64,000 nucleotides of DNA, from positions 10,871-74,870 of the forward strand of contig JBFMFX010000017.1 in the NCBI GenBank assembly GCA_040752005.1, read 5' to 3'. The stretch is from Pseudomonadota bacterium (GTDB taxonomy: Bacteria > Pseudomonadota > Gammaproteobacteria > Burkholderiales > SG8-39). The number at the start of each line of letters is the position of its first letter. The stretch's first letter is position 1. The notes under the pieces were generated by a model. The model was not told where the DNA came from. It was given only the letters and a program-made list of their open reading frames with translations, and did no database searches. The translations under genes and the position numbers were made by a program. Positions 22,551 to 41,180 of the stretch are shown here, one piece after another.

Positions 22551-22583
22551 AGAAGGTTGTTCGGGAGGGGGAGCGGGAGGAAA

Positions 22584-22609
22584 GCCCGCGCGCTGCGCGG
22601 GCTTTTTTT
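22584..22609 (+). terminator. Rho-independent terminator after coxM
   Basis: Stem GCCCGCG-(cgctg)-CGCGGGC followed by T7 at 22603-22609. Confidence 0.8.
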
Positions 22610-36439: not shown

Positions 36440-37450
36440 CTATGGGCGGCGGGGCTCCGCGGACGCCGTCCTCCCCGCCGGGCGCGGCTTGAACGTCGCC
36501 GGCGCGAGCGCGTGGCGCGCGAGCAGCCGATAGAACTCGGTGCGGTTGCGCCCGGCCAGGCGCGCGGCGCGAGTGACGTTGCCGGAGGTGATCCTCAGCA
36601 CACGCTCGAGGTAGTCGCGCTCGAAGGCGCGGCGCGCCTCGTCGAGCGGGACGAACCGGGGCGCCGCGCCGAGCGCCTCCTCCACCATCGCGCGCGTGAT
36701 CGGACCGGCGGCGGCCATCGCCACGAGCTGCTCGACGAACGCGAACAGCTGGCGCACGTTGCCCGGCCAAGACGCGGCGATCAGCGGCTCGAGCGCATCG
36801 TCGCCGATCTCCGGTCGCGCACCCCGGTACCGTGCGCCGAGCCGCGCAAGCGCGTGCGCGACGAGCAGCGGGATGTCTTCGCGCCGCTCGTCAAGCGGCG
36901 GAACGACGAGCCGGATCACTCCGAGGCGGAAGAAAAGATCCTCGCGAAAGGCGCCGGCGGCGACCCGCTCCTCGAGCGGCTCGCGCGTGCCGGCGATGAG
37001 ACGCGCGCCGCCGGGCCCCGGCGCGCGCTCTTCGAGCGCCTCCAGCAGGCCTGCCTGCAGTGGCGGCGAAAGCTCGCTCACGCCATCGAGATAGAGCGTG
37101 CCCCCGGTCGCGGCCGGCGCCGACGCGGGCCGCGCCTCGCCCTCGCCCGGCGATCCGAGCATCGCCCGCCGGATCTCCGCCTCCACGGCCTGCGAGCAGC
37201 GCGTGACGACGAAGGGGCCCGCCGCGCGAGGGCTCGCGCGATGGATCGCGCGCGCCACGGTCTTCTTGCCGGCGCCGGCCGGGCCGACGATGCACACCGC
37301 GGTATCCGAGGCGGCGGCGCGCCGCGCCTGCGCCAGCACCGTCTCCATCGCTTGCGAGCGCGCCACGATGTGCGCGCGCCACGAGGCCGCTTCGCTCTGC
37401 GGCTCGTCTGCGACGCGCGCCGCTTCGGTCAGGTTGGAGATCGAGACCAT
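36440..37450 (-). CDS. Sigma-54-activator-like AAA+ transcriptional regulator, degenerate (no GAFTGA, Walker B Glu replaced)
   Basis: GPAGAGKK, GGTLYLDGVSEL, FREDLFFRL, WPGNVRQL and a Fis-type HTH (NVTRAARLAGRNRTEFYRLL) are present. There is no receiver or sensor domain. The start is trimmed to MVSISNL. Confidence 0.8.
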   Translation of the reverse strand: MVSISNLTEAARVADEPQSEAASWRAHIVARSQAMETVLAQARRAAASDTAVCIVGPAGAGKKTVARAIHRASPRAAGPFVVTRCSQAVEAEIRRAMLGSPGEGEARPASAPAATGGTLYLDGVSELSPPLQAGLLEALEERAPGPGGARLIAGTREPLEERVAAGAFREDLFFRLGVIRLVVPPLDERREDIPLLVAHALARLGARYRGARPEIGDDALEPLIAASWPGNVRQLFAFVEQLVAMAAAGPITRAMVEEALGAAPRFVPLDEARRAFERDYLERVLRITSGNVTRAARLAGRNRTEFYRLLARHALAPATFKPRPAGRTASAEPRRP

Positions 37451-37461
37451 CTTCGCCCCTC

Positions 37462-37467
37462 TATAAT
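37462..37467 (+). promoter_or_regulatory. Consensus -10 TATAAT 30 nt upstream of folA
   Basis: The context cTATAATcggcgca is read directly. No convincing -35 was found. Confidence 0.4.
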
Positions 37468-37497
37468 CGGCGCAAAGATCCGTCAGGACCAGGACGT

Positions 37498-38025
37498 ATG
37501 TCACAGAATGCTCGCACCCCGGCGCCGTCGGTCGCCCCGAACGAGCCGCGCATCTACCTGGTCGCCGCGGTGGCGGCGAACGGTGTGATCGGCGCCGGTG
37601 GGCGGATTCCCTGGCATCTGCCGGAGGATCTGAAGCACTTTCGCACGCTCACGCTCGGGCATCCGGTGATCATGGGCCGCCGGACCTGGGAGTCACTCGG
37701 CAAGCCGCTGCCCGGACGCGAAAACATCGTGGTCACGCGCCGGCGCGGCTACGAGGCACCCGGTGCGTGCGTCGCCGCCTCGCTGGAGGCGGCGCTCGCG
37801 CTGTGTCGCGGCGAGCCGGTGGTGTTCGTGATCGGGGGAGCGGAACTCTACGCAGCGGCGTTGCCGCTCGCGCACGGAATGGTGATGACCGAGATCCACC
37901 GCGACTACGAGGGCGACGTCCGGTTCCCGGAGTGGGACCGCACCCGTTGGCGCGAGACTCAGCGAAAGCCGCAGACCAGCGCCGACGGCCTGCGGTTCGA
38001 TTTCGTGCTCTACGAGCGGGTCTAG
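37498..38025 (+). CDS. folA: Dihydrofolate reductase
   Basis: IYLVAAVAANGVIGAGGRIPWHLPEDLKHFRTLTLGHPVIMGRRTWESL is present. Confidence 0.95.
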   Translation: MSQNARTPAPSVAPNEPRIYLVAAVAANGVIGAGGRIPWHLPEDLKHFRTLTLGHPVIMGRRTWESLGKPLPGRENIVVTRRRGYEAPGACVAASLEAALALCRGEPVVFVIGGAELYAAALPLAHGMVMTEIHRDYEGDVRFPEWDRTRWRETQRKPQTSADGLRFDFVLYERV

Positions 38026-39236
38026 CGCGCCTCGCCCTTGGACTCGAAGACGCGGACCTCGGGCAGCGGAAAGCCGTTGAACTCGCTCGCGTACGCCGTC
38101 GTGTAGGCGCCCGCGTTGCGGATGTAGATGAAATCGCCCTCCTGCAGGTCCGAGGGCAGCGGTTCGTCGCGCAGGACCACGTCCACCGAGTCGCAGGTGG
38201 GGCCGGCCACGTTCCACGGCACGTCCGGCCCGGAGCGCTCGCTGCGGATCTTGTACTTGAGCCCCTCGGTGGTTTCGATGATGCCGCCAAAGAGGCCCGC
38301 GTCCCAGTGCATCCAGCGCTTGCCGCCGCGCACTGTGGTGCCAACGACCCGGCAGACGAAGTAGCCGGCGTCGGAGGTCATGTAACGTCCGGGCTCGGCG
38401 ACCACCTGAACGTCGTCGGCAAACGCCTTCAGCGCCTCGTTGACCACCGCCCCGATCACCTCGATCGAGGGAATCGGCTTGACGTGGCGTACCGGGAACC
38501 CTCCCCCGATGTCGAGCATCCGGGGCTTCAGGCCCGCCTTCAGCATGGCGTCGAACACCCCGCGCGCCTTTTCGATGCCGACGCGCCAGTTCTCCGGGTT
38601 GCGGCACTGCGAGCCGACGTGGAACGTCACCCCGGCCAGGTCGGCGCCGAGCTTGGCGGCCGTGGCGATGATTTCGCGGGTCTCGGTCGCCCCGGCGCCG
38701 AACTTGCCCGAAAGCGGCCAGTCGCTGCCGATGTTCGGCGTCGCGATGCGCACGTAGATTCGGGCGTCGGCGCGCGTCTCGTGCACGCGGCGCAGCTCGT
38801 CCACGCTGTCCACCGCGAACCACTGCACGCCCTTGCCGGCGGCGCAGGCGATCGCCGCACGCGATTTCATCGGGTTGGAAAACAGGATCTCCTCGGCCGG
38901 AACGCCCAGCGCGAGCAGCAGCTCCAGCTCCGCGGTCGAGGCGATTTCAAAGCCGCAGCCTTCCTGGGCGAGCACCTTGAGCACGCGCCGGTCGGGATTC
39001 GCTTTCACCGCATAGTGCGGCCGCACGCGCGGCATGGCGGCGCGGAACCGGCGCACCTTCTGGCGCACGATGGCGGTGTCGAGGATCAGAAACGGCCGCG
39101 TGTAGCGTTGCCGGGCGGCCTGGCGCACGATCTCGAAGTCGAGACTCGCTTCGGGATGCGTGTCGAAGAGCTGTTCTTGCGGTTGCGGGTTCTGTCTGCT
39201 GTTGCGCGCGATGCTACTCGGAGGGCGAGCGCCCAT
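38022..39236 (-). CDS. Fold-type-III PLP decarboxylase (ornithine/lysine/arginine decarboxylase family 2; eukaryotic-ODC-like)
   Basis: HYAVKANP (PLP lysine), DIGGGFP, EPGRY and GPTCDSVD motifs are present. SD AAGGAG lies 9 nt upstream of ATG 39236. Confidence 0.88.
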   Translation of the reverse strand: MGARPPSSIARNSRQNPQPQEQLFDTHPEASLDFEIVRQAARQRYTRPFLILDTAIVRQKVRRFRAAMPRVRPHYAVKANPDRRVLKVLAQEGCGFEIASTAELELLLALGVPAEEILFSNPMKSRAAIACAAGKGVQWFAVDSVDELRRVHETRADARIYVRIATPNIGSDWPLSGKFGAGATETREIIATAAKLGADLAGVTFHVGSQCRNPENWRVGIEKARGVFDAMLKAGLKPRMLDIGGGFPVRHVKPIPSIEVIGAVVNEALKAFADDVQVVAEPGRYMTSDAGYFVCRVVGTTVRGGKRWMHWDAGLFGGIIETTEGLKYKIRSERSGPDVPWNVAGPTCDSVDVVLRDEPLPSDLQEGDFIYIRNAGAYTTAYASEFNGFPLPEVRVFESKGEAR

Positions 39237-39256
39237 TCTGCCGATCTCCTTGCGAA

Positions 39257-39316
39257 CTAAGTTTCAGGAAGGTCGAGGATGCAGACGCAAGCGCCGGAGT
39301 TCCTTTTGCCTGTCAT
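39257..39316 (-). CDS. Candidate leader peptide uORF (MTGKRNSGACVCILDLPET) in the decarboxylase 5' leader
   Basis: The ATG is preceded by GAAGGAGGT with 5-nt spacing. The TAG stop lies 5 nt before the decarboxylase SD. No homologue was recognised. Confidence 0.3.
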   Translation of the reverse strand: MTGKRNSGACVCILDLPET

Positions 39317-39369
39317 GATGACCTCCTTCGTTCAGTTCGTCGAGCGCACGGTGAAAAAAGTCTGCGCCG

Positions 39370-39397
39370 ATTATAGGTACGACCCCCTCGCTGTCAA
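39370..39397 (-). promoter_or_regulatory. Near-consensus sigma-70 promoter TTGACA-16 nt-TATAAT driving the decarboxylase
   Basis: Minus strand reads TTGACAgcgagggggtcgtaccTATAAT. The -35 is at 39397-39392 and the -10 at 39375-39370. Confidence 0.6.
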
Positions 39398-39404
39398 GAG
39401 TTTC

Positions 39405-39431
39405 GGCGCCGCGCGCGGCGCGCGCGGCGCC
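39405..39431. repeat. 27-nt perfect GC palindrome (13-bp arms around one central base) just upstream of the -35
   Basis: ggcgccgcgcgcg-g-cgcgcgcggcgcc was verified base by base. It lies 78 nt downstream of the dcd stop, and no U-tract follows. Confidence 0.5.
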
Positions 39432-39508
39432 GCCGCCGGTCGCCCCGCGGCGCTTCCAATGCACTACATGTGGGGTGCCCTGCCGGCCGCCCCGCCCTAT
39501 CTAGTAGG

Positions 39509-40072
39509 TCAGATCTTGGGCGGCGTGACGCCGCGCTGGCCCTGGTACTTGCCGCGGCGGTCGCGGTAAGAGGTTTCGCAGACTTCGTCGGACTCGATGA
39601 AGATCACCTGCGCGACGCCCTCGTTGGCGTAGACCTTCGCCGGCAGCGGCGTGGTGTTGGAGAACTCCAGGGTGACGTGGCCTTCCCACTCCGGCTCGAG
39701 CGGGGTGACGTTGACGATGATCCCGCAGCGCGCGTAGGTGGACTTGCCCAGACAGATGGTGAGCACGTTTCTCGGGATGCGGAAGTACTCCACGGTGCGC
39801 GCGAGCGCAAAGGAGTTGGGCGGGATGATGCAGACCTCGCCTTCGAAGTCCACGAAGCTCTTGGCGTCAAACGCCTTCGGGTCAACGATCGTCGAGTTGA
39901 TATTGGTGAAGATCTTGAATTCGGTCGAGCAGCGGATGTCGTAGCCGTAGCTCGAGGTGCCGTAGGAAACGACCGGCCGGCCGTCCAGCGCCTTCACCTG
40001 GCCGGGCTCGAACGGCTCGATCATGCCCTGCGCCGCCATGCGGCGGATCCAGCGGTCCGACTTGATCGTCAT
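39509..40072 (-). CDS. dcd: dCTP deaminase
   Basis: 187 aa. Contains SSYGYDIRC and [23 protein letters not shown]. Confidence 0.96.
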
Positions 40073-40094
40073 CGGGCGCGCAGCCGGCGGCGCT

Positions 40095-41180
40095 TCAGGT
40101 GTTCTGCACCACGATGTTGGGGAATTTCGAGCTCATGTCCTTCTGCAGCTCGGCGATCTTCACCGCGCAGCGGCGCGCGATCCTCTTGTAGATCTCGGCG
40201 GCCGCCCCGTCCGGATCGGACACCAGCGTCGGCCGGCCGGAATCGGCCTGCTCGCGGATCGCCGCGTCGAGCGGCAATTGCCCCAGCAGCTCGGTGCCGT
40301 AGTCGGCGCACATGCGTGCCGCGCCTCCCTCGCCGAAGATGTGGCTCTGGTGGCCGCAGCGGGGGCACACATGCACCGACATGTTCTCGACCACGCCGAG
40401 TATCGGGATTCCCACCTTCTCGAACATTTTCAGGCCCTTGCGCGCATCAATCAGCGCGATGTCCTGCGGCGTCGTGACGATGACGGCGCCGGTCACCGGC
40501 ACCTTCTGCGCAAGGGTGAGCTGGATGTCGCCGGTGCCGGGGGGCAGGTCCACCACCAGGTAATCGAGATCGCGCCAGCGCGTATCGCGCAGCAGCTGCT
40601 CCAGAGCCTGGGTGACCATCGGACCGCGCCAGATCATCGGCGTGTCCACGTCGATCAGGAACCCGATCGAGATCACCTGCAGGCCGTGGCCTTCCATCGG
40701 CTCGAGCGTGCGGCCGTCCTTCGACTCCGGTCGCCCGGCGATGCCGAGCATCGTCGGCTGCGACGGGCCGTAGATGTCGGCATCGAGAATGCCAGCCGAG
40801 GCGCCCTCGGCGGCGAGCGCGAGCGCGAGGTTGGCCGCCGTGGTGGACTTGCCGACACCGCCCTTCGCCGAGGCGACCGCGATGATGTTCTTCACGCCGG
40901 GCACGAGCTTGACGCCGCGCTGCACCGCGTGCGCGACGACCTTCGAACGCACGCTGACCGCGGCGCTCGCGGCCCCGCCCGCCCTGAGCGCCTCGATCAC
41001 CTGGCGGCGGATCGGCTCGAACTGGCTCCTGCCCGGGTACCCCAGCTCGATGGCCACCGCCACCGCGTCGCCCTCGACCCTGAGATCCTTGACCGCGCGC
41101 GCGCTGACGTAGTCCTTGCCAGTATTGGGGTCCACGAGCCGGGAGAGGATCGCCCGGGCATCGGCTTCAGTGATCGGCAT
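40095..41180 (-). CDS. apbC: Fe-S cluster carrier ATPase ApbC/Mrp
   Basis: [20 protein letters not shown] (deviant Walker A) and the CPRCGH motif are present. Confidence 0.93.

Follow-up and report, generated by a model that had tools for sequence, protein, structure and literature searches.

A conserved, UAG-terminated upstream open reading frame before fold-III ornithine decarboxylase genes of Burkholderiales and Nitrosomonadaceae may encode an arrest-type leader peptide

This study concerns the leader of a decarboxylase gene in a stretch of 64,000 nucleotides (nt), here called the window, from a Pseudomonadota bacterium that GTDB places in the Burkholderiales lineage SG8-39 (assembly GCA_040752005.1, contig JBFMFX010000017.1, positions 10,871 to 74,870 of the forward strand). 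The putatively regulated gene lies on the minus strand at 38022..39236, has its ATG at 39236, and is an open reading frame of 404 amino acids (aa) with the Pfam domains PF02784 (Orn_Arg_deC_N) and PF00278 (Orn_DAP_Arg_deC). Its top match among solved structures was the V. vulnificus lysine/ornithine decarboxylase 2plj (E = 3e-67), with eukaryotic ornithine decarboxylases (ODCs) next, and relatives of the protein carry the Joint Genome Institute (JGI) product name 'ornithine decarboxylase'; its score did not reach the lysA cut-off. Judged by these matches, the protein is a fold-III pyridoxal phosphate (PLP) enzyme, an ornithine (or lysine/ornithine) decarboxylase. Upstream of the gene lies a short upstream open reading frame (uORF), conserved in relatives together with its Shine-Dalgarno (SD) sequence and its stop codon, which may encode a leader peptide that controls the decarboxylase.

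The uORF occupies 39257..39316 on the minus strand, with its ATG at 39316 and its TAG at 39259-39257, and consists of 19 codons plus UAG that encode MTGKRNSGACVCILDLPET. The stop lies 5 nt upstream of the decarboxylase SD, AAGGAG (39246..39251, minus strand), which itself stands 9 nt before the decarboxylase ATG; the first-pass annotation of this DNA had described the uORF and its distance to this SD in the same way. The uORF ends in a core of Leu-Pro-Glu-Thr and UAG (CTT CCT GAA ACT TAG; 39257..39271, minus strand), and this C-terminal motif occurs once in the window versus 0.08 occurrences expected. A strong SD set 5 nt before the uORF had also been claimed. The SD is there, with its core GAAGGAGGT at 39329-39321, but its distance to the ATG is 4 nt (CATC), and the extended SD GAAGGAGGTCATC (39317..39329, minus strand) adjoins the ATG directly. 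The sequence AAGGAGGUCAUC agrees at 11 of 12 positions with the complement of the 16S rRNA 3' tail. Further upstream on the minus strand is the promoter that the annotation had pointed out, with its -35 hexamer TTGACA at 39392..39397 and its -10 hexamer TATAAT at 39370..39375 separated by 16 nt. All 12 of its 12 positions match, and no second sigma-70-like site of this kind occurs in 6 kb (shuffles give 0.3). Transcription would start at about 39363, as deduced from the promoter geometry.

The first-pass annotation had made conservation of the uORF peptide in relatives one of the points on which its leader proposal turned, so orthologous loci were chosen by means of the decarboxylase only. Species-representative genomes were retrieved with the decarboxylase protein alone, and the best 80 of 363 genome hits were used; these relatives are metagenome-assembled genomes of uncultured Burkholderiales and Betaproteobacteria with decarboxylases of 79-93% protein identity. 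A uORF was found at the equivalent place in 76 of the 80 (77 of 81 with the window), one copy being truncated. It was likewise found in all 11 cultured genomes located by decarboxylase look-up, namely Nitrosomonas europaea, N. eutropha, N. ureae, N. communis, N. cryotolerans, N. supralitoralis, Nitrosomonas spp. PY1 and Is37, Nitrosospira lacus, N. multiformis and Nsp13, and in each of these 11 loci the place of the uORF is without a called gene. The peptide, the SD and the stop codon are thus kept in relatives, and the lack of peptide conservation that the annotation had named as a refutation is decidedly not what is seen.

Metagenomes were scanned with the pattern GGAGGTCATCATG-N33-63-CCNGARACNTAG, which combines the SD with the C-terminal motif, and at least 120 loci were obtained. 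Among the matches listed, every readable locus (118 of 118) had a fold-III ornithine/lysine decarboxylase starting 17-36 nt past the uORF stop; the other two end just past the start codon of apparently the same gene. One clade in this set lies on contigs of 40-50% GC, with decarboxylases 60-70% identical to that of the window among the matches listed, and was identified as Nitrosomonadaceae by protein searches. Its peptides include MRSKINLFIQTDWVQVHIPET and MICIKNFFAPADLVNVHIPET, and its layout (promoter, AAGGAGGTCATC-ATG, 21 codons, TAG, 20-25 nt, SD, ATG) is the architecture of the window. Over all sets there were at least 141 distinct peptides with a length range of 19-22 codons; the commonest length, 21 aa, accounts for 104. 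Going by sequence, the uORF family spans a range from a GC-rich soil lineage to Nitrosomonas europaea.

The promoter, the SD and the uORF all stand far above chance because they are conserved in these relatives. The very strong SD, AAGGAGGTCATC-ATG, is conserved across the family along with the promoter and the short gap to the decarboxylase. Hardly any variation in GGAGGTCATC-ATG is seen among the relatives or among 10 of the 11 cultured ammonia oxidisers, the remaining one, sp. PY1, having GGGGGTCATC. The nucleotide sequence of the extended SD suggests selection for maximal or prolonged 30S binding. The extended SD is kept up to the start codon even in Nitrosomonas genomes of 40% GC.

All 80 readable sequences (window and relatives), including those without a uORF, have TTGAC[T/A/G] as the -35 hexamer and a spacer of exactly 16 nt, with TATAAT (61), TATACT (12) or CATAAT (7) as the -10 hexamer; the -35 hexamer of the Nitrosomonadaceae is TTGATT. 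Several further features of this region were observed. The 16-nt spacer (39376-39391 in the window; L001-L080) is G-rich and conserved in the GC-rich clade, with the consensus cgcGGGGGGTCATCCC, and a conserved AAGTTTT(T)CC tract stands at the transcript start. Within the promoter region, at a distance of about 130-160 nt from the ODC ATG on its upstream side, N. europaea (L209) and N. eutropha (L211) have a 7-bp inverted repeat, CTTGATT-N7-AATCAAG, in which the -35 hexamer forms the left arm and the right arm lies within the spacer, and Nitrosospira multiformis (L210) has a 9-bp inverted repeat, CTTGATTCC-GCT-GGAATCAAG, again with the -35 hexamer as left arm. These repeats suggest an operator overlapping the promoter in these lineages. 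An inverted repeat of the -35 hexamer and spacer was rejected as a general operator: across 79 promoters the mean arm was 3.99 nt versus 3.58 nt in shuffled spacers.

The substitution pattern of the uORF shows selection on the encoded peptide, with free variation at third codon positions against a fixed C-terminus, [I/L/V]-P-[E/V]-T. In the window and the 76 relatives with a uORF, P, E and T as the last three residues were each found in 76 of 77 uORFs, and their codons have drifted synonymously (CCT 49, CCC 18, CCG 5, CCA 4; GAA 45, GAG 31; ACC 39, ACT 31, ACG 6). I, L or V occupies position -4, and D or E predominates at -5. Among the 53 distinct 21-codon uORFs, which were ascertained independently of the uORF, mean entropy at codon positions 1, 2 and 3 was 0.74, 0.94 and 1.30, and the core codons gave 0.14/0/1.33 for P, 0/0.31/1.23 for E, 0/0/1.71 for T and 0/0/0 for the stop. 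Insertions and deletions in the uORF are multiples of three. Peptide conservation increases towards the C-terminus, from 1.9-2.8 bits of information at positions -6 to -10 through 3.0-3.2 bits at -4 and -5 to 4.2-4.3 bits at -1 to -3; known termination-arrest peptides likewise tend to be under the strongest constraint close to the peptidyl-transferase centre. A second, weaker conserved motif, M-[T/R]-[S/G]-x-[R/K]-N, lies at the N-terminus, where the first codons are A-rich and conserved at the nucleotide level (ACA, AGG, AAC).

The identity of the stop codon is also under selection. Among loci found without the stop codon as a search criterion, the uORF ended in TAG in 88 of 88 independently ascertained cases (77 of 77 in the window and relatives, 11 of 11 in the cultured Nitrosomonadaceae). 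Background genes use TAG less often: 16 of 43 do so in the window, roughly half in the regions flanking the loci of GC-rich relatives, and 14 of 89 in the loci of Nitrosomonas type. TAG is a single transition away from TAA, and the adjacent GAA/GAG site is mixed (45 to 31); selection on the stop is deduced from these counts taken together. UAG is the only stop codon read by release factor 1 (RF1) alone.

The gap from the uORF stop to the decarboxylase ATG is 20 nt in the window and 17-36 nt in the relatives, mostly 17-25 nt, and the decarboxylase SD begins 5-12 nt past the stop. A ribosome with Thr-tRNA in its P site and UAG in its A site covers roughly 10 nt past the stop codon, as judged by toeprint geometry, and the decarboxylase SD would therefore lie within or beside the footprint of such a ribosome. 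The frame of the gap varies freely (17, 18, 19, 20, 21, 22, 23, 25 nt and so on), and a fusion of uORF and decarboxylase by readthrough or frameshifting was rejected. Four species have cleanly lost the uORF (L011, L039, L046, L055) and retain the promoter, the 5' leader and the decarboxylase SD. Because these deletions leave promoter and SD intact, initiation on the decarboxylase gene appears, from sequence comparison, to be independent of the uORF, which is consistent with a negative gate. The uORF-less species are natural 'deletion mutants' that are useful for comparison. The deletion junction of L011 resembles a recombination between two SD-like repeats (…CAAG|CAAGGAGACGTTGATG), and L061 carries an internally deleted remnant of 9 codons, MRSKRVPET.

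Several searches addressed whether the leader acts as a folded RNA or belongs to a known family. RNAalifold on 72 leaders gave 0 consensus pairs, and no terminator-like site was found from the promoter to the decarboxylase ATG. Rfam cmscan of the window and of 17 orthologous loci produced no match that reached the gathering score, and a threshold of E<=10 brought up only noise for the leader (a CRISPR direct repeat, osmY and an internal ribosome entry site). Five representative peptides had no match in Pfam or NCBIfam at E<=10, and the peptide profiles showed no regulatory codon run. An attenuation leader of the trpL/hisL/pheL type was rejected on these grounds, there being no terminator, no conserved structure and no codon run. 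The alphaproteobacterial speF and odc1 RNA motifs were rejected for want of an Rfam match and of consensus pairs, with the presence of an odc1 model in the Rfam release left unchecked. A pyrimidine tract in the 5' leader, UUUUCC, was considered as an anti-SD for the decarboxylase; it fits L003, L009 and L022 and is inconsistent elsewhere, the window included. The element was not described in the open-access literature searched, an absence that is no proof. These searches agree with the earlier view that this is an independent, undescribed leader of a fold-III ornithine/lysine-type decarboxylase, unrelated to SpeFL.

A GC palindrome of 27 nt had been reported in the control region. It is present, and in fact forms a 14-bp perfect stem at 39404..39432 that stands 6 nt upstream of the -35 hexamer. 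No other perfect hairpin of the window is as long, and the palindrome is mildly unusual (stems of >=13 bp occur in 3 of 20 Markov-random windows). It lies outside the conserved unit, since only the closest relative, L001, has a shorter version at the same place and the other 78 lack it, and no T-run follows it on either strand. A role as a conserved operator or terminator was rejected on both counts; it may be a lineage-specific hairpin at the 3' end of dcd, the upstream neighbour, or an insulator. Elsewhere in the window, at 22581-22605, the sequence AAAGCCCGCGCGCTGCGCGGGCTTT forms a perfect hairpin with A-runs and T-runs at its sides, the arrangement of a canonical bidirectional intrinsic terminator. 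U-tract terminators are therefore in use in this genome, in contrast to the palindrome at 39404-39432.

The decarboxylase gene is monocistronic, with a convergent dihydrofolate reductase gene (folA) downstream and dcd (dCTP deaminase, 39509-40072) upstream of its leader. The order mrp/apbC (iron-sulphur P-loop NTPase)-dcd-ODC-(convergent) folA-thyA, at 36440-41180 in the window, is common to Nitrosomonas and Nitrosospira (L201-L203); in the window a sigma-54 activator gene (36440-37504) comes after folA. Judged by its neighbours mrp-dcd-ODC-folA-thyA, the decarboxylase is a biosynthetic ODC in a housekeeping gene context. The intergenic region between dcd and the ODC gene carries two extra conserved blocks in the GC-rich clade (L003-L038), about 60-110 nt upstream of the -35 hexamer. 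Block 1 is CCCAC(A/T)AT..TTAGTGGG, an imperfect palindrome, and block 2 is CTACCTATAGTGGTTTCTCA; both are weakly recognisable in the window at about 39440-39508, with CACATGTAGTGCATTGG at about 39471-39455. Neither block had an Rfam match, and they could be transcription-factor sites or structures of the dcd 3' end.

The model proposed here is that the uORF encodes a translated, cis-acting leader peptide of the arrest type that gates the decarboxylase ribosome-binding site (RBS) through delayed RF1 release at UAG, a reading that we place just on the probable side. A conserved, strong sigma-70 promoter would produce a leader of about 125 nt, and the exceptionally strong SD would load ribosomes on the uORF of 19-22 codons. 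The nascent chain, its [I/L/V]-Pro-Glu-Thr end lying in the peptidyl-transferase centre and the upper exit tunnel, would then slow or block RF1 release at UAG, and the ribosome held at the stop would physically occlude the decarboxylase RBS. Because the SD lies 5-12 nt and the AUG 17-25 nt past the stop, a 30S subunit would be excluded for as long as the leader ribosome is held. Fast release would leave the RBS free, and terminating ribosomes might re-initiate there. The extent of stalling would be set by a small molecule of the pathway, with putrescine or another polyamine favoured, so that the outcome would be feedback repression; an end-product effector is preferred in view of the repressive effect expected of a stall and of the housekeeping genes around the decarboxylase. 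Termination arrest by occlusion is favoured because of the selection on the C-terminus, the stop that only RF1 reads, the invariant SD, the short gap, the lack of structure or a terminator, and the uORF deletions. The stall at the stop codon, its specificity for RF1, the occlusion of the RBS, the sign of the regulation and the nature of the ligand are all inferred.

The arrest-peptide class that includes TnaC, SpeFL, PepNL and MsrDL is recognised by a cis-acting uORF with conservation concentrated beside the stop, and this feature is found here; membership of the window uORF in the termination-type arrest peptides is the hypothesis that its sequence supports. TnaC, the tryptophanase leader, works via Rho and a long spacer. 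TnaC (24 aa) and PepNL (14 aa) inhibit a release factor at their own stop codon, as is proposed for the window uORF. However, their stop is UGA, read by release factor 2 (RF2), whereas that of the family described here is UAG, there is no sequence similarity, and they regulate other pathways. For PepNL, stop-codon identity tunes the stall (PMC11890864). Also among the closest functional parallels is SpeFL of E. coli, an activator in which ornithine induces stalling at a UAG stop with RF1 blocked; the speFL-speF spacer is 257 nt, the mechanism involves Rho, a rut site and a pause hairpin, and all three stop codons occur among speFL orthologues (bioRxiv 10.1101/604074). Like SpeFL, the window uORF is a short cis-acting uORF before an ornithine decarboxylase gene, with predicted action at the stop codon and the effector part at the C-terminus, and both would link ribosome function to polyamine synthesis. 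SpeFL has 34 aa, an N-terminal HIRRXXH sensor and an aromatic-rich C-terminal effector, whereas the window family has 19-22 aa and ends in IPET; on inspection, none of the at least 141 peptides has the HIRRXXH motif. SpeFL precedes the inducible fold-I enzyme SpeF with the antiporter gene potE, and the window uORF precedes a fold-III ODC in a housekeeping context. The speFL spacer is long and Rho-sensitive, whereas that of the window family is 17-36 nt without conserved structure, and the stop codon varies among speFL orthologues but is invariably UAG here. SpeFL is found in Gammaproteobacteria (E. coli/Salmonella) and the window family in Betaproteobacteria. Membership in the SpeFL family was rejected, there being no sequence homology, no fold-I speF-potE downstream and no long spacer.

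Two further systems invite comparison. The eukaryotic MAGDIS uORF reportedly causes polyamine-dependent stalling at termination that blocks access to the main open reading frame, which amounts to end-product feedback. The proposed window leader would resemble it in being a tiny uORF before a decarboxylase of the polyamine pathway, in stalling at termination and in its end-product logic. Unlike the window peptide, MAGDIS is a hexapeptide that works in the context of eukaryotic cap-dependent scanning, and there is no homology; the polyamine dependence of the window leader is conjectural. The MAGDIS peptide is that of the AMD1/SAMDC uORF (PMC2811004). The nearest systems by location are the odc1 and speF RNA motifs of Alphaproteobacteria, of which the odc1 motif (uORF-25-1) contains a conserved 11-aa uORF in the leader of a fold-III ODC gene (PMC8632094). 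The odc1 and speF motifs and the window leader are all conserved 5' leaders of fold-III ODC genes in Proteobacteria. However, the former are structured RNAs with a long P1 hairpin and a pseudoknot, and their uORF overlaps the main start and has UUG starts, whereas the window leader has no conserved structure and its uORF starts with ATG and ends before the main start. By sequence, covariance model and architecture the window uORF is a member of none of the compared families, and it would represent a new leader-peptide family with a distinct RBS-adjacent, UAG-dependent architecture.

Other explanations of the conserved uORF were weighed. One of them, drawn from SpeFL and TnaC, is that ornithine (or lysine) induces the stall and that decarboxylase expression is thereby raised, for instance because the SD is kept unfolded, because the ribosome is handed on or because the mRNA is shielded from Rho or RNases. 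SpeFL, the one bacterial ODC leader peptide characterised so far, is such an activator, the decarboxylase SD is mostly paired in single-sequence folds, and in Nitrosospira the spacer has a CCUCC...GGAGG anti-SD hairpin straight after the stop, which a ribosome there would melt. However, the spacer is too short to accommodate a rut site or a pause hairpin, there is no family-wide conserved structure, and a ribosome on the stop codon covers or abuts the decarboxylase SD in most lineages. The ODC is also not part of an acid-stress operon with an antiporter, and the natural uORF-less variants have an intact RBS. Activation of this kind is considered unlikely. A pairing of uORF codons 9-11 (CUUGCG) with the CGCAAG that abuts the decarboxylase SD, acting as an RNA switch, had been put forward together with the palindrome in the control region. 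Both 6-mers and the palindrome do exist in the window, but a 6-nt helix also forms in 28 of 200 uORF shuffles, complementarity between the uORF and the SD region over 74 distinct leaders is at the shuffled level (4.47 versus 4.52 nt), the alignment yields no consensus pairs and the palindrome is shared, in shorter form, by L001 only, so that a switch can be given hardly any weight.

Two further alternatives were considered. In one, the strong SD of the uORF simply feeds ribosomes to the decarboxylase start or unfolds it, constitutively and with no ligand. The extremely strong and invariant SD, the short and constrained gap and the A-rich conserved first codons, typical of efficient initiation regions, all fit such coupling, and the proximity expected of a coupled gene pair is seen in the 17-36 nt between uORF stop and decarboxylase start. 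Coupling would be independent of peptide and stop identity, yet the last residues and UAG are the most constrained part of the uORF while third positions drift, the decarboxylase has a good SD of its own, and this SD is unchanged in lineages without the uORF; this explanation is quite unlikely. In the other, the released product of 19-22 aa acts in trans on the decarboxylase or another polyamine protein, as an antizyme-like inhibitor or an assembly factor, and its location merely secures co-expression. Peptide-level selection extends over much of the length, including the N-terminal M-T/R-S/G-x-R/K-N, and among the matches listed the uORF is linked exclusively to the decarboxylase. A trans-acting peptide, however, would leave the invariant UAG (88 of 88) and the constrained distance of 17-25 nt unexplained; the peptide has no match to a family, and its conservation peaks at the extreme C-terminus beside the stop, as expected for a chain that acts inside the ribosome. 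It is regarded as very unlikely.

Some observations weigh against termination arrest by occlusion. We know of no stalling motif of the form -Pro-Glu-Thr-stop. Some Nitrosospira copies and that of N. cryotolerans have -P-V-T in place of -P-E-T (HIPVT, HTPVT), and the acidic residue is therefore not absolute. A clade with a gap of 33-36 nt (L024, L053, L054, L060 and L069; metagenome loci including L094, L097, L110 and L129) would have its decarboxylase RBS only marginally occluded by a single stalled ribosome, and the mechanism may be different there. The P-V-T variants and this clade indicate that details vary between lineages. Single-sequence minimum-free-energy folds vary by lineage, and in single-sequence ensembles both SDs are mostly paired (unpaired probability 0.25 for the decarboxylase SD and 0.29 for the other), so that RNA unfolding could possibly contribute in individual lineages, as these predicted folds would allow. 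Finally, the direction of regulation and the ligand are reasoned from geometry and physiological logic. The insert conserved in the clade with the longer gap contains a small hairpin and a T-run (TAG GTCCG.TCGACCGAC TTTTT GGGGGATTTGGAGATATG) and is weakly terminator-like.

If termination arrest by occlusion is true, this leader would add an arrest peptide only 19-22 aa in length, whose C-terminal motif is simple and sharply defined and whose need for UAG is absolute, and a natural system in which termination by RF1, rather than RF2, is the regulated step. To our knowledge, metabolite-sensing arrest peptides are rare and instructive as to mechanism, with TnaC and SpeFL as the main bacterial examples. 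A more specific and tentative suggestion, which we regard as rather doubtful, is that this is the first bacterial arrest peptide to sense a polyamine end product, the IPET-type chain together with putrescine or spermidine in the exit tunnel blocking RF1 at the obligatory UAG and so gating the neighbouring decarboxylase RBS directly, without Rho or RNA structure. Were that so, bacteria would possess an equivalent of the eukaryotic MAGDIS uORF, present from Nitrosomonas europaea to uncultured soil Burkholderiales. The hypothesis is directly testable because the element is present in the cultured and sequenced N. europaea, N. eutropha, N. ureae, Nitrosospira multiformis and N. lacus. The uORF is a widespread small open reading frame, predicted to be translated, at a position where no gene is called in the genomes examined. 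The ammonia oxidisers Nitrosomonas and Nitrosospira matter to the nitrogen cycle and to wastewater treatment, and the leader proposed here would, if the model is true, reveal a control of polyamine levels in Betaproteobacteria that includes very abundant uncultured soil Burkholderiales.

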